Positions 24,897-51,367 of a DNA stretch of 64,000 bases are shown here, piece after piece. This DNA is from an uncultured Gemmatimonadaceae bacterium (GTDB lineage: Bacteria; Gemmatimonadota; Gemmatimonadetes; Gemmatimonadales; Gemmatimonadaceae): contig OY970320.1 of the NCBI GenBank assembly GCA_963716745.1, forward strand, positions 96,001 to 160,000, written 5' to 3'. Below the pieces are notes generated by a model. It made no database searches and was not told the DNA's origin. It was given only the letters and a program-made list of their open reading frames with translations. Both the position numbers and the translations under genes were made by a program. Position 1 is the stretch's first letter. Each line of letters starts with the position of its first letter.

Positions 24897-27491
<2,595 letters not shown>

Positions 27492-27495
<4 letters not shown>

Positions 27496-27961
27496 CGCAG
27501 GAGCGCGACGTCGCGTGGATGAAGGAAGCGTTGGTGCTGGCGCGCGAAGCGGCGACGTCACGGCGATGTGCCCGTGGGCGCGATCGTCGTGCGTCGCGAC
27601 GAGGTACTCGCGAAGTCCGCGAACCGCACCGTGCGCGATCAGGATCCCACGGCGCATGCCGAGGTCATCGCCATCCGTGAGGCGTCGCGCGTGCTCGGCA
27701 GCTGGCGGCTGGATGGCTGCTCGCTCTACGTGACGCTCGAGCCCTGCGCGATGTGCGCCGGCGCGATCGTGCTCGCGCGCGTGGATCGCGTGGTCTACGG
27801 CGCCTGGGATGAGAAAGGCGGGCATGGCGGGCAGCGTGGCCGACTTGCTCCGTCATCCGCGTTTGAACCATCGCCCCGAGGTCCTGGCCGGTGTCTGCGA
27901 ACCGTCGAGCGCCGAGTTGCTGAAATCCTTCTTCGCCGATCGCCGAGCGCCGAGCGCCTAG
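27492..27961 (+). CDS. tadA: tRNA adenosine(34) deaminase; frameshifts near 27560 and 27816
   Basis: [26 protein letters not shown]; third frame [14 protein letters not shown]...LLKSFF. Confidence 0.93.
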
Positions 27962-28013
27962 GGCCCGCAGTTGGAGTACGGCCCCCGCGCCGTTAACTTT
28001 GTCCGTCCCCCAA

Positions 28014-28100
28014 GGACGGGTGGCCGAGTGGTTGAAGGCACCGGTCTCGAAAACCGGCATACCGGAAACGGTATCGTGAGTTCGAATCTCACCCCGTCCG
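28014..28100 (+). tRNA. tRNA-Ser (anticodon CGA)
   Basis: GGACGGG/CCCGTCC acceptor, TGGCCGAGTGG D-arm, CCGGT-CTCGAAA-ACCGG, long variable arm, TTCGAATC; no encoded CCA. Confidence 0.96.
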
Positions 28101-28109
28101 TGATGACAG

Positions 28110-28143
28110 AGAGCCCGCGCAGTGATGCGCGGGCTCTTTTTTA
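28110..28143 (+). terminator. Rho-independent terminator
   Basis: AGAGCCCGCGCA-gtga-TGCGCGGGCTCT followed by T-tract. Confidence 0.9.
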
Positions 28144-28161
28144 TCTCGACGGCGGAGGCGG

Positions 28162-29586
28162 TCAGAACGCCATCCACAAGTACAAGTACAACGCACTGTT
28201 GTTCATTGCGGTCCGTGGTGTCGTGCCATCGTACGCGCTCGCCCCGCCGTTGAACTTGGAGTAGAGTGTGTACTGGATCGCGAACCGCGTGTTCTGCCAC
28301 GGATTGTAATCGAACTCGCCGATCCATCCAGCGCTGTTCGGGCTCCCGCTGGCGCTGCCGGTCACGGCCCCCGGTTGGTAGAGCAATGCATCGGCAGTGC
28401 CGCTCGTGCCGAACGCCCCGAGCGTGAAGCCGAGATAAAGCGATGGGTCGTACGACGCGTTGACTTTCCAACTCGAGAGCGTGTTCGCGACTGACGACGC
28501 TTCACCTGATCCGAACGCCGCACCGAGCGACTGCGATTCGTGGATCCAGCTTGCGCGGCCAATGAGCGCGCCATCGGTCAGCTTGCGCTCATACTGCGCG
28601 TCGAGCGCCACGTCGGTATATCGATTCGTCGGGCCCGAGACGCCGGTCGGGCCCAATGAAGTCTCCATCCCGAACGTGCCCACCATCACATAGTCCTTGG
28701 ACCACTGATGTTGCAGCGCAACGCGCCAATATGGAGCGGCCCCGATCGGCAATCCGGTGACTGTCGTGTCGAGCGGATACGCGACACCCTGCGGCGCGCG
28801 CCCATATGCGGTGAACTCAGCATAGACCAGGTTGTTCCAAAGGCCGTACGCTCCGAGCCCCACCACCTGTTGGCCCAGCGCGCCGTCGACGATCGGTGCC
28901 GCGATGGGCGATGGAGCGATCGGCGACGACATGAACGGGAAGCTCCAGGCGGGCACCGTATTCCACGGATCTTGCACGGTGGGATTGTTCTCAAGCGAGA
29001 CGCCGTACACCAAGCTCTTCCCCGCAAACTGTGTGCGGTCGGCGAATCGCAGATCCACGTTGTCGAGTCCGATGGCGCCGTCCGGCGCGGTGTAGGTCAA
29101 CTGGATGAACGCTCCGATTCTTGGCGTCATCTCGCCGGCGTAGAACAGGCTCAATTGATCGGGAAAGAGCACGCCGCCATTCGCGGTGCCCGGGATCGCT
29201 GCGTTCAGGTGCGTCGACGACACCACAAGCATCGCGGCGACCGGCGAGATCGGCGACAGTTTCAGTGTTTCGCGGTCGGCCGAATCCTTCTGCGAGATGT
29301 TGACGAGACCCGTGAGCGTGTAGCCGTTGAGTTTGAAATTCCGGCCGAACGGTGTGAGTTGCGGGAACTGGTAGTGACACGCGCTGCACGCCAAGTGCGT
29401 TTGGCGGGAGAAACTTGGAAGCCGCCGCGCGAGTTGCGCGGCGCCCGCGGGATTCCCGGTGAGCGTGAAGCGCGCGCTCGCCGGCGACTCCCCGGCGGTC
29501 GCCATCGACCGGCGCGGCGCGAAGCCCGCCAGGAGCAGCGCGAGTGACGCAGCGCTCGCGATCTTGAGTGGACGAGAGATGGTCAT
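28162..29586 (-). CDS. Cyc2-like fused monoheme cytochrome c - outer-membrane porin
   Basis: Signal peptide; LPSFSRQTHLACSACHYQFPQLTPFGRNFKLNGY; then beta-strand-rich barrel ending LYLYLWMAF. Confidence 0.85.
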   Translation of the reverse strand: MTISRPLKIASAASLALLLAGFAPRRSMATAGESPASARFTLTGNPAGAAQLARRLPSFSRQTHLACSACHYQFPQLTPFGRNFKLNGYTLTGLVNISQKDSADRETLKLSPISPVAAMLVVSSTHLNAAIPGTANGGVLFPDQLSLFYAGEMTPRIGAFIQLTYTAPDGAIGLDNVDLRFADRTQFAGKSLVYGVSLENNPTVQDPWNTVPAWSFPFMSSPIAPSPIAAPIVDGALGQQVVGLGAYGLWNNLVYAEFTAYGRAPQGVAYPLDTTVTGLPIGAAPYWRVALQHQWSKDYVMVGTFGMETSLGPTGVSGPTNRYTDVALDAQYERKLTDGALIGRASWIHESQSLGAAFGSGEASSVANTLSSWKVNASYDPSLYLGFTLGAFGTSGTADALLYQPGAVTGSASGSPNSAGWIGEFDYNPWQNTRFAIQYTLYSKFNGGASAYDGTTPRTAMNNSALYLYLWMAF

Positions 29587-29633
29587 GTGGATCGACGCTC
29601 CCGGCGTGGAGGAATGGAACTGGGCCGTTCCGA

Positions 29634-30035
29634 TCAGGGCTTCGTTTTGCCGTGGCTCACCGACCACACATAGACCGCCACGTTGACCGCCTGCGCGTCG
29701 GAGATCCCGTTCGGATGGGAGACCATCGCGGTCCCGTCTACGCCGTGCGTGATCACCCGATAGATCTCCGGCAGAGTGCCGTTCGTCGCATCCTTCCATT
29801 TGTGCGCCTGAAGAGCTGGCGCGATGGGCGTGCCCTCGAGGTCCTGTCCATGACAGGCCAGGCAATTGCCGGCGCCATGGAACACCTGGCGGCCTTCAGC
29901 GATCATCGTGGTGGTGATCTGGGCGGTATCGGGGAGCGGTGCCTGCTCGATGCTCGCGCTGCCGGACGTCGACCCGAAAGCCGACGCGAGCACGACCACT
30001 CCGAGTGCAATGGCGATAGCGGAAGATTTGCGCAT
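29634..30035 (-). CDS. Periplasmic monoheme cytochrome c
   Basis: Signal peptide; GRQVF, CLACH, APAL, distal Met in GTAM. Confidence 0.9.
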   Translation of the reverse strand: MRKSSAIAIALGVVVLASAFGSTSGSASIEQAPLPDTAQITTTMIAEGRQVFHGAGNCLACHGQDLEGTPIAPALQAHKWKDATNGTLPEIYRVITHGVDGTAMVSHPNGISDAQAVNVAVYVWSVSHGKTKP

Positions 30036-30138
30036 GCGCGCACGATACGCGGGCTACGGCGTTAGCGCAGTCGGCAGAATCCCGGTTCGGCGTAAGGGTT
30101 TCGCTGAGTACGACCGCTGCGATCGCACCGGTCGACGG

Positions 30139-30828
30139 TCAGGGCCCGGTGGCGCCCCCGTCGGTCAGCAGCCCGAGCTTGAGCGCGAAGGCGACGTAAT
30201 CGGCACGCTTCATTAAGCCGACCTTCTCGTTGATCCGCTGTTTGTACGTATCGACAGTCTTCGGACTGATGACCAGCCGATCGCCGATCTCGGGCGCGGT
30301 GTAGCCTGCCGCTACCAGGCGCAGCACATTGCGCTCGCGCGCAGTCAGCTTCTCATATCGCGCTCGCTCGCCCGCGTGCTCGTCCTTCTTGGTCAGCTCT
30401 TTCGCCAGCACGAGCGCCGCCGTGGGCCGCACGAATATCTCCCCGCGCGCCACGGTTCGCACCGCGTTCACCAACTCGCGGTCCGCGACGCTCTTCATGA
30501 TGTAGCCTGAGGCGCCCGCCTCGAGCAGCGGCACGAGGTACTCCTCCTCCGCGTGCATTGTGAGCACGAGCACGCGCGTCGTACCGCCTTTCGCGGTGAT
30601 CGCCTTCGTGGCGCTCAGGCCATCCATGCCTGCCATTGTCAGGTCCATCACGACGACATCCGGCTGGAGTCGCTCGACGAGCGCGAGCGCCTCCGAGCCA
30701 TTACTGGCCTCGCCCACGACTTCGATGCCTTGCGCGGCGCCGAGGACGGCCTTCAGGCCGGCGCGAACGATCGGGTGATCGTCGGTGAGGATCACGCGGA
30801 TCGTCGTGCCACTGATGCGGTCACTCAT
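30139..30828 (-). CDS. NarL/LuxR-family response regulator
   Basis: REC (TDDH, MDLTM, GYIMK) plus LuxR HTH (LTARE...EIGDRLVISPKTVDTY). Confidence 0.95.
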   Translation of the reverse strand: MSDRISGTTIRVILTDDHPIVRAGLKAVLGAAQGIEVVGEASNGSEALALVERLQPDVVVMDLTMAGMDGLSATKAITAKGGTTRVLVLTMHAEEEYLVPLLEAGASGYIMKSVADRELVNAVRTVARGEIFVRPTAALVLAKELTKKDEHAGERARYEKLTARERNVLRLVAAGYTAPEIGDRLVISPKTVDTYKQRINEKVGLMKRADYVAFALKLGLLTDGGATGP

Positions 30829-31850
30829 CGTGCCAGCGGGATCGAGGTGCGAACGCGAGTTCCGGAGCCCATGGAGCTTTCGATCTCGAGGGATCCCCTC
30901 ACCAGTATCGTGCGCTCGCGCATGGAGAAGAGTCCCATGCCCGGCCGGCGGCGCTCCGCCTCGCGCAGGTCGAAGCCGGAGCCGTCGTCGGAGACTTCCA
31001 GCTGCGCCGCGCCGTCTGTGACGGTCACGCTGATGCGCACGGCGTCGGGGTCAGCATGGCGGACCGCATTTCCGAGCGCCTCCTGCGCGACGCGATAGAG
31101 CACGCTCGCCACGGGCGGCGGCAACTCCGTCACGTCGCCGGAAGCATCGACCGTCACCGGAACGCCGGAAGCGAGTCGCGTGGTACGCGCCAGCCACTCC
31201 AAAGCGGCGACGAGGCCGAGATCGTCCAGCACCCGCGGATGCACAGTGTGCGACAGGTGGCGGACTTCCTCGAGTGCGTCCACCGCCATATTGCGCACTT
31301 CGTCCAGGCGCTGCGCCGATCCCGCATCGCGCTCCTCGCGTACGGCGACGCTCAGATGGAGCAGGAGCGCGGTGAGCGTTTGTGCCACCGAGTCGTGCAG
31401 TTCGCGCGCGATCCGCCCTCGCTCCTCGTCCTGCGCGTTGATCACCTGCGACGCGAGGAGGCGCGACCGCGCACTGTCTGCCGTCAGATCGTCGAGAAGC
31501 GCATTGATGGCGCCGCCGACGCGGAAAAGGTCCGGATCGGCGAGGCGCGACGGCTCCACACGGGCAGCGCGGTCGCCGCGCAGCACGCGCGACGCCGTGA
31601 GCTCCAATTCTCGCAGCGGCCACAGCGCGAGGCGGACGAGTGCGAGGTTCACGATAAGCGCCGCGATCAACAGCCCCGCCATAGCGATCCCGATCTGCGG
31701 CCTCGCCGCCGGAACGAGCCGGTCGAGCACCAGCAGCGCCACCAGCACGATGACCAGGTTCGCGCCGGCGATCTTTGCGCCGAGTGATACGCGAACCACC
31801 CGCTCCCATGCACGGCGGGCCGATGCGTCCCCCTCGGTGGATGTCAGCAC
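30825..31850 (-). CDS. Sensor histidine kinase (2 TM, HAMP-like, HisKA_3, HATPase)
   Basis: ERGRIARELHDSVAQ, QEALGNAVRHA, DDGSGF, GMGLFSMRER; start uncertain. Confidence 0.93.
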   Translation of the reverse strand: MLTSTEGDASARRAWERVVRVSLGAKIAGANLVIVLVALLVLDRLVPAARPQIGIAMAGLLIAALIVNLALVRLALWPLRELELTASRVLRGDRAARVEPSRLADPDLFRVGGAINALLDDLTADSARSRLLASQVINAQDEERGRIARELHDSVAQTLTALLLHLSVAVREERDAGSAQRLDEVRNMAVDALEEVRHLSHTVHPRVLDDLGLVAALEWLARTTRLASGVPVTVDASGDVTELPPPVASVLYRVAQEALGNAVRHADPDAVRISVTVTDGAAQLEVSDDGSGFDLREAERRRPGMGLFSMRERTILVRGSLEIESSMGSGTRVRTSIPLAR

Positions 31851-31859
31851 GTACTGAAT

Positions 31860-33104
31860 CTAGCGCGCACCGCTGGTGCCGGAGTCCGGCGTCCGGATGT
31901 GTTCCGCGCGGAATCCGATCCCGATGACACGCGCCGGGAATGCGCCGCAGCAGCGCGAACTTCTGCAGCAACCAGAGCGGGAAGGGGAGTCTCGAGATCG
32001 GGCCCGTGGACGCGAGTGCGGGGGCGATCACGCGCTTGTGGGCGAGTGCCTGCAGCTGTTGGGTCATGCGCGTGGGGAATGCTCGGCGCGCCTGAACCCG
32101 ATTCAGCGTGTCGAGATCCACAGCGCCGTGCGATAGCGGCTCGGCGAGGATGTTCGCGGCGGCGACGGCGTCCTGGATGGCGAGATTGATGCCCACGCCG
32201 CCCACCGGACTCATCGCGTGCGCCGAGTCGCCGATGCAGAGCAGGCCATCGCGCGCCCACACTCTGAGATGGTCGAGCGCCACGGAGAGGAGCTTGATGT
32301 CGTCCCAGGTCGCGAGCTGCTGCGCGCGGTCCGGCGAAATACGGCGCGACGCGCTCGATGGTCGCGCGGAAGGCGGGCAAGGCCCGCTTTCTTGATGGCG
32401 TCCAAACCTCCCTTCGGAATGATGTACGCGCACTGCCAGTAGTCGCCGCGGTCGAGGGTCACGAGGATGCGACCTTCGCGCACGCGGCCGAGCGTCTGCT
32501 TCGGGTCGGTGGGCGCGTGATCGAGCCGCATCCAGAGCACGTCGATGGGCACGTTGTAGTCGAGGATCTCGAGGCCGGCCTTCTCGCGCACGATGGAGTG
32601 TCGTCCGTCGGCGCCCACGGTGAGATCGGCGCGGATCTCGAAGGCGCCTTCGGGTGATGTGCCGCGCACGCCGGCGACGCGGCCGCTCTCCACGATGAGA
32701 TCCGTGACCTCGTGCTCCATGCGCACCTGGAAGCCCGGATATTTCTTGCCGAGCTGCGCGATGAAGTCCAGGAAGTCCCACTGCGGCATGAGTGCGAGGA
32801 ACTTGCAGTGCGTGTGGAGGTGCCTGAAATCGGCGACGGTAAGCGAGAAGTCGTCGATCTGCGCGCCGATCGTGTGGAATTCCTGGTGCGGGCGCTTGAG
32901 GAATTCGTCGATCGCGCCCAGCTCGTACACCAGTTCGAGCGTGGACGGGTGGATCGTGTCGCCGCGGAAGTCCCGGAAGAAGTCGGCGTGCTTCTCGAGC
33001 ACGATGACATTCACGCCGGCGCGCGCGAGGAGGAGCCCGAGCACCATGCCGGCGGGTCCGCCACCGACGATGCAGCAGCGGGTGGTGGTGGCGGCGGGCG
33101 TCAT
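31860..33104 (-). CDS. FAD-dependent oxidoreductase/monooxygenase; about three frameshifts (near 32372, 32330, 31935)
   Basis: IVGGGPAG, VLEKH.DF.RDFRGD, GADGRHS, IGDSAHAMSPVGGVGINLAIQDA across successive frames. Confidence 0.88.
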
Positions 33105-33194
33105 GGCGGCAATATGTGATCCGCAGCGGCCGCTGTCACCTCGCGGCGATCCGGGTTAACTTTGTGCGCGGCCGCTCACGCGGTCGTTGTTGTT

Positions 33195-33281
33195 GGATGG
33201 GTGGCCGAGTGGTTTAAGGCGCACGCCTGGAAAGCGTGTGGGCTCGAAAGGGTCTCGCGAGTTCGAATCTCGCCCCATCCG
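33195..33281 (+). tRNA. tRNA-Ser (anticodon GGA)
   Basis: GGATGGG/CCCATCC acceptor, CACGC-CTGGAAA-GCGTG, long variable arm, TTCGAATC; no encoded CCA. Confidence 0.96.
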
Positions 33282-33475
33282 TGGAACGTGCGCCGCCGTG
33301 GGGGTACTGTGTGATGCAGGAGTGATCGGTATCACCGCGTGGACTAGTAGGCCGCCCTAGCACGTTTTGGTACTTGCGCGAATAACTAGGCTTGTTAGCA
33401 TTGAACTAAGCACCATCACATAGGCCGCGACGCTGCGGCCGGCTTGACGGGCGAGCTAACGGCTCCGCCAGTCGA

Positions 33476-48555: not shown

Positions 48556-49097
48556 CCCGCGACCAACTGGAGCAAGCGGTTAGAGCGGCCTGCGAGATTT
48601 CGGGCGACAACGTCGTGATCGTGTTCGGCTCTCAGGCGATCCTGGGACAATACGAGGATGCGGCACCAACGCTGAGGCAGTCCGTCGAAGTGGATCTGAT
48701 GCCCGATACGCTCCGCGAGAATGTCGACAAGATTGACGGCTCTCTTGGTGAGGATTCGCGCTTTCACCAGACTCACGGTTTTTATGTTCACGGAGTCGAC
48801 ATCGAAACCGCCAAGCTTCCTCCGGACTGGAGGACGCGCGCGATTGAGCTTGTTCCGGCGGGCTCCCCACATCTTAAGGCGCTCTGCATAGAGGCGCACG
48901 ACCTGGCGGCAAGTAAGCTCGCGGCATTTCGAGACAAGGACAAGGAGTTTGTGTCCACGATGCTGACTGAGAGATACGTCAAGACGCAAAAGCTTCACGC
49001 TCGGATTCGATCACTACCAGTCGATGAGCAGCTCCGGTCGAAGCTCACGGGCTGGTTGCGGGAGACAGCGAAGCTTGTGGCACTCTCACGCGAGTAG
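48552..49097 (+). CDS. DUF6036-like nucleotidyltransferase-family protein
   Basis: MTRDQLE, VIVFGSQAILG, SVEVD, LGE.S.FH.THGFY..GV, LP.DW..R, HDLAASKLAAFRDKD; ATGA overlap with upstream gene. Confidence 0.75.
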   Translation: MTRDQLEQAVRAACEISGDNVVIVFGSQAILGQYEDAAPTLRQSVEVDLMPDTLRENVDKIDGSLGEDSRFHQTHGFYVHGVDIETAKLPPDWRTRAIELVPAGSPHLKALCIEAHDLAASKLAAFRDKDKEFVSTMLTERYVKTQKLHARIRSLPVDEQLRSKLTGWLRETAKLVALSRE

Positions 49098-49159
49098 TGG
49101 TGGTGATGATGATCATGATGATCAGGCTTAGGCCGAGCGATGCCTCTTGTGCGCGCAGC

Positions 49160-50923
49160 ATGCGGGCGAGCCGAATCGCTGCCGCTGCATCCTTGTGTCT
49201 AGTCTCACTCGCGGCGCCCGCCGGCGCGCAGCGCGATGGCGACTGGACCATGCCCGCGCGCGACTATGCGTCGACGCGCTTCAGCGAGCTCGCGCAGATC
49301 ACGCCCGCCAACGTCAAGAAACTCCAGAACGTCTGGACCTTCTCCACCGGCGTGCTCGGCGGGCACGAGGGACAGCCGCTCGTCGTGAACAACACGATGT
49401 ATGTGGTCACGCCGTGGCCGAACGTGCTCTATGCGTTCGACCTCACGCAGGAAGGGTATCCGCTCAAATGGAAATACCGGCCGGCGGTGTCACCCAACGC
49501 GATCGGCATCGCGTGCTGCGACGCCGTGAACCGCGGCGCCTTTTACGCGGATCACAAGATCATCTACAACCTGCTCGATGGGCACACCGTGGCCATCGAC
49601 GCGGAGAGCGGCAAGGAGCTCTGGAACACGCAGGTCGCGGATCTCGCGCACGGTGAGACCACGCCCATGGCGCCCTTCGTCGTGGGCGACCGAGTGATCG
49701 TCGGCCCTTCGGGCGGCGAGTTCGGCATCCACGGCTGGCTGAAGGGGCTCGATCTCGCCAGCGGTAAGCTCATGTGGACCGCGTACAACATGGGACCCGA
49801 CAGCATCATGCTCTCCAAGGCCGGCTCCGCCAAATTCTTCTACGACAAGGGCGCCGAACTTGGAACCAGCACGTGGGGTTCCGATTCGTGGATGCACGGC
49901 GGCGCGCCGGTGTGGGGCTGGTTCTCGTTCGATGCGCAGCTCGATCTCGTGTACTACGGCGTTGGCAATCCCGCGCCGTACAATCCGGAGCAGCGGCCCG
50001 GCGACAATAAGTGGACCGCGAGCGTGATCGCGCGCCGCCCCGCCGACGGATCCATCGCGTGGGCCTACCAGTTCACACCGCACGACAGTTGGGACTTCGA
50101 CGCGACCGCCGAGCTCGTGCTCGTGGACCTCGAGATCAACGGCAAGCTCCGCCACACGCTCGTGCAGTTCAACAAGAACGGATTCGCGTACACGCTCGAT
50201 CGCGCGACCGGCGAAGTGCTCGTCGCCCAACCGTTCGTCGAAACGAACTGGGCGAAGCGCATCGATCTTGCGACGGGCCGTCCGGTGCTCGATTCGACGA
50301 AACTCACCGGCGCGAGTCGCGGCAACGTGAAGCACATCTGTCCCACGCTCGAGGGCGGGAAGACGCCGGCGGCGCCGGTGGCGTACTCGCCGCTCACGAA
50401 ACTCTTCTACGTGAGCACGAACAACATGTGCATGGATTACGCGGCCACGCCGGTCACGCACATCGCCGGCACGCCGTACATCGGCGCGAATTCGCCGTAC
50501 TACGCGGGCGCGGGCGGCCACATGGGCGCGTTCATCGCGTGGGATGCGGCCACCGGGAAGAAAGTGTGGGAGATCAAGGAGCGGTATCCGGTGTGGAGCG
50601 GCGTGGTGGCGACGGGCGGCGGCGTGGTGTTCTACGGCACGCTCGATGGTTGGTTCAAAGCGGTGGACGCGCGCAGCGGCGCGGTGCTCTGGAAATTCAA
50701 GGTCGGCTCCGGGATCGTCGGCAATCCGATCACGTACCGCGGCCCCGACGGAAGACAATATGTCGCCGTGTACGCGGGCATCGGCGGCGACTGGTTCCTG
50801 CTCTCGGGCGACGTACGGAGCGACGATCCCGCCGACGTGCGCGACGCGGCGCCGTTCGTGAAGGATCTCGCGCGCCGCACGAGCCAGGGCGGCATCGTGT
50901 ACCTTTTCGCGCTCCAGCCGTGA
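49160..50923 (+). CDS. PQQ-dependent dehydrogenase, methanol/ethanol family (XoxF/ExaF-like)
   Basis: Signal peptide; WTFSTG, vicinal CCDAVNRG, GGEFG, GNPAPY..RPGDNKW, TPHDSWDFD, FYGTLDG, GIVGNPITY. Confidence 0.93.
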   Translation: MRASRIAAAASLCLVSLAAPAGAQRDGDWTMPARDYASTRFSELAQITPANVKKLQNVWTFSTGVLGGHEGQPLVVNNTMYVVTPWPNVLYAFDLTQEGYPLKWKYRPAVSPNAIGIACCDAVNRGAFYADHKIIYNLLDGHTVAIDAESGKELWNTQVADLAHGETTPMAPFVVGDRVIVGPSGGEFGIHGWLKGLDLASGKLMWTAYNMGPDSIMLSKAGSAKFFYDKGAELGTSTWGSDSWMHGGAPVWGWFSFDAQLDLVYYGVGNPAPYNPEQRPGDNKWTASVIARRPADGSIAWAYQFTPHDSWDFDATAELVLVDLEINGKLRHTLVQFNKNGFAYTLDRATGEVLVAQPFVETNWAKRIDLATGRPVLDSTKLTGASRGNVKHICPTLEGGKTPAAPVAYSPLTKLFYVSTNNMCMDYAATPVTHIAGTPYIGANSPYYAGAGGHMGAFIAWDAATGKKVWEIKERYPVWSGVVATGGGVVFYGTLDGWFKAVDARSGAVLWKFKVGSGIVGNPITYRGPDGRQYVAVYAGIGGDWFLLSGDVRSDDPADVRDAAPFVKDLARRTSQGGIVYLFALQP

Positions 50924-51367
50924 AGAACGCCATCGTCGCGATGGCGCTCTCTCGGCGCCGCTGTCGCGTGCGCGAAGAAGGATGCGGCCGCGCCGCATGC
51001 GTCTACCGGCGACGTGCTGCAGACCGACCGCATTTACGCCGGCGGCGTGAAGCCGCCCGACCTGCCGTTCCCGTTCCCGCGCCCGACGTCGACGCCCACC
51101 GCCGCGAGCGGCGCGAAATTGTTCACCGCCATGAACTGCGACGGCTGTCACGGCGGCGGCGCGACGGGCTGGGTGGGGCCGAGCCTCATCGATGGCCGCT
51201 GGCGCTACGGCGGCACCGATGCCGAGGTGTTCGCATCGATCTATTTCGGGCGTCCCAAAGGCATGCCGGCGTTCGGCGGCACGCTCGCACCCGACGCGAT
51301 CTGGGACATTGTCGCGTATCTCCGATCGCTCCCGCCGCCCGAGGACGTACCGACGCAGCGATTCTAG
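50920..51367 (+). CDS. Monoheme cytochrome c lipoprotein (XoxG/cytochrome cL-like partner); frameshift near 50950
   Basis: GTGA overlap with dehydrogenase; repaired N-terminus gives lipobox AVAC; NCDGCHG, GPSL.D..W.YG, GMPAF. Confidence 0.85.

Follow-up and report, generated by a model that had tools for sequence, protein, structure and literature searches.

In a 64,000-nucleotide stretch of the genome of an uncultured Gemmatimonadaceae bacterium (here, the window), we found a two-gene unit that very probably forms a heme-porin conduit, made of a Cyc2-type fused monoheme cytochrome c/16-strand porin and a soluble partner cytochrome c. The unit is genuine and specific to its lineage, a variant of a known system to which it adds a few new details. 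The Cyc2 architecture itself is ordinary, and neither cyc2 in Gemmatimonadota nor the adjacency of cyc2 and cytochrome c genes is new. The initial annotation presented cyc2 in this phylum as a surprise; however, it has already been published from Gemmatimonadota MAGs (PMC9769843, PMC10367259, PMC11316326, and PMC9671151), in one case from a single MAG of the class Glassbacteria (PMC9769843) and in another as a cluster 3 gene (PMC9671151), and cyc2 adjoining a mono- or diheme cytochrome c gene is also on record (PMC10715153). New here are the fixed small-carrier partner, the swap of that carrier, an N-terminal extension, a likely control site, and the accessory placement of the unit behind a tRNA-Ser gene. 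Full-text searches of the openly accessible literature, covering listings and selected passages, turned up no account of the cytochrome subfamily or its exchange for another carrier, and none of the extension or the operator.

The cytochrome-porin and its relatives

The cyc2 open reading frame (28162..29586, - strand) starts with ATG and encodes 474 amino acids ending in LYLWMAF. The N terminus of the product is basic, with a hydrophobic peak at residues 9 to 19 (Kyte-Doolittle value of 2.3), and the hydropathy and sequence pattern predict a signal peptide. This is followed by an extension of about 30 residues, the heme domain, and a barrel (residues 116 to 473) that ends in the terminal Phe. 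The protein has exactly one CxxCH (C67, C70, and H71), within LPSFSRQTHLACSACHYQFPQLTPFGRNFKLNGY, which holds its only two cysteines and is invariant in the 120 rows of the alignment; P75-Q-L77 provides the PxL that follows the heme motif at a distance of four residues in Cyc2 proteins, and the length exceeds the minimum for the family (>365 amino acids). AlphaFold2, run with the 120-row alignment, predicted 16 strands over residues 116 to 473 (mean pLDDT of 83.2), with the N-terminal extension at low pLDDT and a helix at residues 46 to 55. The top structural matches of the model were 16-strand porins, among them OprP (2O4V; Z score of 21.0, rmsd of 3.5, 306 aligned residues), which ties with other porins of this type and is the template named for Cyc2 by Keffer et al. 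(PMC8406198). The architecture first read from the sequence (one heme, beta region, terminal Phe, and 474 amino acids) was borne out by the reading frame and the model, with hydropathy in keeping with the signal peptide, and so was the expected barrel of about 16 strands; the single CxxCH, the PxL, the OprP-like fold, and full-length homology likewise uphold the identification as a Cyc2-like cytochrome-porin.

The protein had no Pfam or NCBIfam match and no meaningful match to PDB sequences by protein or profile search, and at least 2,094 homologs were found at an E value of ≤1e-10 among 8,000 candidates scored. Met119 is invariant in an alignment of 120 close homologs and is not kept in the Acidiphilium JF-5, Polymorphobacter, and cluster-1-like rows; it may be the sixth heme ligand, for which it is only a lead. 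A complex prediction of Cyc2 (residues 30 to 474) with two hemes and the partner scored 0.01 and neither supports nor opposes their interaction.

Cyc2 is defined by the motif AXPXFAR[Q/K][T/Y] upstream and PXL downstream of the heme motif (PMC8406198). The upstream motif of the window protein, RLPSFSRQT, matches five of the seven fixed consensus positions, and we class it as a variant because the exact consensus is unmatched. The exact upstream motif is found in none of the 48 named Gemmatimonadota sequences versus 17 of the 33 other relatives. The loss of the first motif alanine appears to have a structural cause, namely, the extension of about 30 residues, which would replace the canonical cleavage site. 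Between the end of the hydrophobic peak and the motif Pro there are 37 residues in the window Cyc2 versus a median of 8 in the 33 relatives from outside the phylum, so that the spacer of about 25 amino acids previously noticed before the heme domain is real and amounts to some 29 extra residues. At least 20 residues separate the peak from the motif in 46 of the 48 named Gemmatimonadota sequences (median, 40), in 1 of the 33 other relatives (median, 8), and in none of seven sister-family sequences. We considered the extension as a docking site for the partner cytochrome and rejected the idea, since a copper protein, too, is a partner of extended Cyc2s, and cluster-1-like Cyc2s that lack the extension are likewise found with the cytochrome.

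The initial annotation named the Cyc2 of Acidithiobacillus, Gallionellaceae, and Zetaproteobacteria as its reference; the window protein is not of the Gallionellaceae/Zetaproteobacteria type (cluster 1), in which Fe(II) oxidation at neutral pH has its best validation. The window Cyc2 is only 24 to 29% identical, mostly in the heme domain, to the protein of Sideroxyarcus (Gallionellaceae), versus 35% full-length identity to Acidocella/Acidiphilium (Acetobacteraceae) proteins and 45 to 50% over 419 residues to exact-motif proteins of Bacteroidota, Calditrichota, and Pseudomonadota. A 38-row tree placed it in one clade with proteins of Acetobacteraceae, Burkholderiaceae, and Bacteroidota (SH-aLRT of 98) and outside the separate clade of the Sideroxyarcus protein P0348 (SH-aLRT of 100, branch of 1.73), a cluster 1 anchor that is a MAG protein and not a characterized Cyc2. 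It would thus be cluster-2-like, a placement reached indirectly through Acetobacteraceae and Bacteroidota kin and not through the Acidithiobacillus ferrooxidans sequence itself, because the Acetobacteraceae proteins are treated as homologs of A. ferrooxidans Cyc2B (PMC10715153) and the Bacteroidota Cyc2 is placed in cluster II (PMC9769843). Cluster 2 is the largest Cyc2 group, with 858 of 1,593 sequences (PMC8406198); the cluster definitions and their caveats are those of PMC7029218, PMC11412304, PMC11312239, and PMC13264449.

Like the cluster 2 proteins, which include A. ferrooxidans Cyc2 (PMC8406198, PMC7029218), the window Cyc2 has a predicted signal peptide, a single N-terminal CxxCH, PxFxRQT upstream and PxL downstream of it, an OprP-like 16-strand barrel, and more than 365 amino acids. 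It differs in its additional N-terminal residues, in having R..S where the consensus has two alanines, and in its host, a neutral-soil heterotroph with no adjoining rus or cox genes. The architecture is also that of cluster 1 (Mariprofundus Cyc2PV-1, Ghiorsea Cyc2TAG1, and Gallionellaceae), and two Gemmatimonadaceae genomes have the cytochrome subfamily of the window next to a cluster-1-like Cyc2, but a long, fully supported branch sets the window protein apart. Its relatives at 30 to 40% full-length identity are from Ralstonia, Caballeronia, Methylocystis, and Acidiphilium plasmids, genera that to our knowledge are not known as Fe(II) oxidizers. Other types of Cyc2 occur nearby in the taxonomy. 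Cluster-1-like proteins of Gemmatimonadaceae (L100 [G033:C1:143143-143469], L134 [G176], and L135 [G228]) group with the Sideroxyarcus protein, and more Gemmatimonadota-labeled members exist. A third, very distant Cyc2-like type of the same order, with PAFARKY or PVFARRY starts (L117 [G059] and L120 [G049]), is probably cluster 3; one of its two genes lies about 1 kb from a monoheme cytochrome gene.

The closest named relatives are Gemmatimonadaceae, which supports the presumed origin of the host from Gemmatimonadota, and cyc2 and the cytochrome c gene both have GC3 values of 0.79 to 0.80. Frameshift errors occur elsewhere in the genome, but the reading frames of these two genes are open. Pieces of both are found again in short contigs from soil runs belonging to three studies, with 0 to 5 differing letters each (run X1 may be the source sample), one contig bridges the intergenic gap, and none of the indels listed for these contigs falls inside either gene. 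The holders of the window sequence are soil metagenomes, and no RNA data set is among those listed.

The soluble carrier and its exchange

The gene 47 bp upstream of cyc2 on the same strand (29634..30035, -) encodes a periplasmic class I monoheme cytochrome c of 133 amino acids. It has one CxxCH (residues 58 to 62), matches PF13442 (35 bits; cutoff, 27) and PF00034 (32.4 bits; cutoff, 21.3), and shows the features of this class, including Met104, which is invariant in 29 rows and is likely the sixth heme ligand. We surveyed 201 genomes of the same family that are at least 85% complete, with E values of ≤1e-40 for Cyc2 and ≤1e-28 for the cytochrome subfamily. Cyc2 was present in 45, the cytochrome in 33, and both in 31, within 1 kb of each other in 30 of these, so that the suggestion of a periplasmic cytochrome partnering cyc2 finds support in cooccurrence. 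In the two genomes that have the cytochrome without this Cyc2 (G176 and G228), the cytochrome flanks a distant Cyc2, whose grouping with the Sideroxyarcus protein has an SH-aLRT of 100. A Cyc2-type gene is therefore present in all 33 genomes with the cytochrome, and a single carrier seems to serve two Cyc2 types that are about 25% alike.

Where the cytochrome is missing, another carrier takes its place. A type-1 copper protein with invariant His, Cys, His, and Met is encoded within 0.6 kb of cyc2 in 13 of the 14 Cyc2 genomes without the cytochrome; the profile was built from 7 of these genomes and found the protein in 6 of the 7 others, the miss being near a contig end. Altogether, either the cytochrome (30 genomes) or the blue-copper protein (13 more) lies within 1 kb of cyc2 in 43 of the 45 genomes. 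G012 is the only genome with both carriers beside cyc2; it contributes a single count to the 31, to the 30, and to the regulator tally below. In four genomes, the copper protein occurs although this Cyc2 is absent. The 45 genomes span 23 genera and carrier type tracks genus, so the cooccurrence counts overstate independence. Among ten other Cyc2 genomes checked singly, two had the cytochrome elsewhere, and a mono- or diheme cytochrome c gene adjoins cyc2 in all five plasmid records examined.

In a set of 80 loci from named genomes, the cytochrome was found in 21 (20 of the 47 labeled Gemmatimonadota and 1 of the 33 others), in five arrangements relative to cyc2: upstream, divergent, downstream, convergent, and between tandem cyc2 genes. 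The tandem order cyc2-cytochrome c-cyc2, with paralogs about 45 to 50% alike, was seen at L029, L037, L065, L069, and L147 and in G104, G105, and G241. A cyc2 pair at L151:2128-6738 (G099) stands beside genes for a Crp-family regulator and a cytochrome b/c fusion (bc-type complex). Within the window itself, a PQQ-dependent dehydrogenase gene is followed by its own monoheme cytochrome c gene (49028-51364).

The host genome codes for CcmF/G/H, a caa3 oxidase (heme c on subunit II), alternative complex III, and a bd oxidase, and no oxidase genes adjoin the cyc2 pair. RuBisCO, NiFe hydrogenase, NosZ, and NarG gave no match above cutoff in this 90% complete genome, in which the copper nitrite reductase model had a below-cutoff match only. 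The unit resembles the Cyc2-rusticyanin-Cyc1 chain (PMC13741234), which ends in an aa3 oxidase, and the zetaproteobacterial Cyc2-Cyc1 pair in that a heme-porin and one or more soluble periplasmic carriers would lead to a heme-copper oxidase. However, it consists of two genes with one carrier, which in this family is a monoheme cytochrome or a plastocyanin-like copper protein, whereas the rus chain has a diheme c4 and rusticyanin; moreover, the oxidase genes of the window host are elsewhere and no carbon fixation was found. Two other loci were observed in this host. Beside ccmF/G/H (G000:C1:2666866-2671361; L105:4867-9362) there are a frameshifted NapC/NirT-like multiheme gene, a 16-heme cytochrome gene, and a 545-amino-acid ORF without a Pfam match, possibly a porin, a cluster that could be a second, multiheme envelope conduit. 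A molybdopterin oxidoreductase gene with one in-frame TGA (G000:C1:3110619-3111893) probably encodes a selenocysteine formate dehydrogenase.

The variable slot and the candidate operator

The unit lies in a variable slot (about 28143..31883) bordered on the left by a tRNA-Ser(CGA) gene (28014..28100, +). Both flanks, from tRNA-Ser(CGA) to an FAD monooxygenase gene, are common to three of five same-genus genomes, in which the cargo is unrelated to that of the window (a TonB receptor, secreted proteins, and a phosphatase-like gene). Shared flanks with differing cargo indicate an accessory slot, and the cyc2 unit is patchy within the genus (two of six genomes). A hairpin with a T tail (28108..28139, +) between the convergent tRNA and cyc2 genes is terminator-like by its position, which is the sole argument for it because two such sites were found versus 2.7 expected. 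The window holds a second tRNA-Ser gene 5 kb from the first (33194-33282); among four genomes of the genus, the slot behind the first differs in its cargo, and what follows the second is variable as well. Nearby, a tadA-like deaminase gene (27568-27996), the FAD monooxygenase gene (31864-33104), and clpB (24897-27495) appear frameshifted, and single-base differences from the short contigs at 27820, 31939, and 32328 indicate that at least some of these frameshifts are assembly errors.

Upstream of the pair, the slot encodes a NarL/LuxR-type response regulator with REC and GerE domains (30139..30828, -), near-core in the family, and a membrane-anchored HisKA_3 sensor kinase in which no PAS or GAF domain was detected (30825..31850, -). 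The NarL-type regulator is a candidate for control of the cyc2 pair. A 15-bp imperfect palindrome, TAAGGG-TTT-CGCTGA (30093..30107), 57 bp upstream of the cytochrome c start, is a fair candidate for its operator, judged by recurrence, and would be absent or unrecognized in most loci. The site ranks first of 3.3 million positions, a rank that is partly circular because the pattern was guessed from the window; having been seeded there, it can be tested by other genomes only. Sites of at least 12 bits were found upstream in only 8 of 56 further loci, the window locus included. Without the window, the figure was 7 of 55 versus about 0.5 expected, some of the seven being close kin of the training sites. 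Among loci from outside Gemmatimonadota, the figure was 1 of 28 versus 0.65 expected. The palindrome recurs before the first gene of the cyc2 unit in other genera. The exact pattern occurs at 74 sites in 57 of the 201 genomes (reversed control, 18 sites in 17), with one new site before the partner gene of G229. At least nine sites in seven genomes, window included, are within 10 kb of the regulator gene.

Other searches of upstream regions were negative: there were no strict FNR box matches in 78 regions, unbiased Gibbs sampling returned only coding-sequence patterns, and a sigma-70 scan had no match before the cyc2 pair. The kinase and regulator were rejected as a fixed part of the unit, since 165 of the 201 genomes have the regulator and most of these lack cyc2; among the 37 Cyc2 genomes for which its position was listed, the regulator is within about 10 kb of cyc2 in 8, and in G001 and G003 it sits elsewhere. 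In these two genomes of the same genus (L128:2519-3187 and L129, respectively), the kinase and regulator genes are followed by a gene for a His-rich DsbD_2/HupE-like membrane protein and not by the cyc2 pair.

The neighborhoods of relatives at 60 loci contained genes for Usp (10 loci), BON (5), phosphoketolase (5), CBS (4), and pyridoxamine-oxidase-like proteins (5), which are known from low-oxygen regulons. At least one of six such families is present in 18 of the 60 loci, a count for families chosen after seeing them, with the host's own genome as the only control. VIT1-family genes were found in 6 of the 60 loci, and heavy-metal P-type ATPase genes are nearby too.

Direction of electron flow and physiological donor

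Electron flow through the conduit is probably inward. The Cyc2-type protein would be exported and receive heme through the Ccm system, and the heme domain would plug the periplasmic side of the predicted 16-strand barrel, a sidedness adopted from Cyc2 models in the literature. The heme would be reduced by a small molecule or ion in solution that enters the barrel, most likely Fe(II), free or in organic complexes, and the soluble cytochrome c, with its His/Met heme, would take the electron to the caa3 oxidase, so that a heterotroph would gain supplementary proton motive force without fixing carbon. Both genes are probably read as a single transcript, which the NarL-type regulator may switch at the upstream palindrome, perhaps at low oxygen. 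Both kinds of carrier, blue-copper proteins and His/Met cytochromes c, usually have high potentials and pass electrons to oxidases; a blue-copper protein filling the carrier slot therefore favors inward flow, in a way that mirrors Cyc2-rusticyanin-Cyc1.

As to what is oxidized, we consider the case for dissolved Fe(II) as the physiological donor, serving as an energy supplement in a heterotroph, to be evenly balanced. Fe(II) is proposed because it reduces every Cyc2 tested (PMC8406198, PMC13692758, PMC13741234), and three or four distant Cyc2 proteins oxidize it in vitro (PMC8406198, PMC13692758). The window Cyc2 is far from every characterized one, and function is unverified in much of clusters 2 and 3, according to Keffer et al. 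(PMC8406198), so that Fe(II) oxidation by this protein is put forward conditionally. Direction cannot be read from the family either, given measured potentials of -130 to +560 mV (PMC13692758) and the link of the A. ferrooxidans isoform Cyc2B and its Acetobacteraceae homologs also to Fe(III) reduction (PMC10715153).

An inward conduit might instead take electrons from another soil reductant, such as reduced humic quinones, redox-active metabolites, or Mn(II) or Cu(I) complexes, an unlikely alternative. It fits the prevalence of Cyc2 (45 of 201 genomes) in a heterotrophic soil lineage, the soil metagenomes that hold the window sequence, and a cluster-2-like placement far from the validated neutrophilic oxidases, but all the Cyc2s tested accept electrons from Fe(II), and the partner cytochrome is common to cluster-1-like Cyc2. 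Also improbable is a redox sink in which, under oxygen shortage, the cytochrome and Cyc2 would export electrons to humics or to Fe(III) chelates in solution. The Cyc2B and Acidiphilium link to Fe(III) reduction (PMC10715153) and the one Cyc2 at -130 mV (PMC13692758) are consistent with export. So are the low-oxygen-type neighbors at 18 of the 60 loci, although low-oxygen induction is equally compatible with microaerobic Fe(II) oxidation. A blue-copper protein is an unlikely low-potential donor at neutral pH, and its presence in the carrier slot of 13 genomes argues against export; furthermore, a quinol dehydrogenase is not a conserved neighbor, and the host has the separate multiheme cluster that could serve this purpose. 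A role outside energy conservation, as an Fe(II)-detoxifying ferroxidase, in metal homeostasis at oxic-anoxic switches, or as a redox-sensing input of the two-component system, would accord with the VIT1-family and P-type ATPase genes, with the patchy distribution in the genus, and with a unit lacking oxidase genes, but is decidedly improbable, since the finding that 43 of 45 genomes have a soluble carrier dedicated to Cyc2 points to sustained electron transfer, and a regulator found mostly in genomes without cyc2 does not need Cyc2 as its input.

Inward electron uptake is thus the reading that we carry forward. Extended to the family, it would make about one-fifth of Gemmatimonadaceae species facultative iron mixotrophs, with an extended cluster-2-like Cyc2, a swappable one-electron carrier to the oxidase, and a NarL-type switch at a 15-bp operator, a generalization that we offer as tentative and, taken whole, rather doubtful. 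Were it true, the large portion of the Cyc2 family that belongs to heterotrophs would acquire both a function and a regulator. Cluster 2 has a single tested member, which comes from an acidophile and not from a neutral-soil heterotroph. Cyc2 assays so far have been performed without the native partner (PMC13692758), and the present unit, with just two genes, the natural electron acceptor among their products, and a candidate operator, would lend itself readily to expression and assay. If this Cyc2 oxidizes Fe(II), a common and abundant soil lineage would enter the iron cycle.
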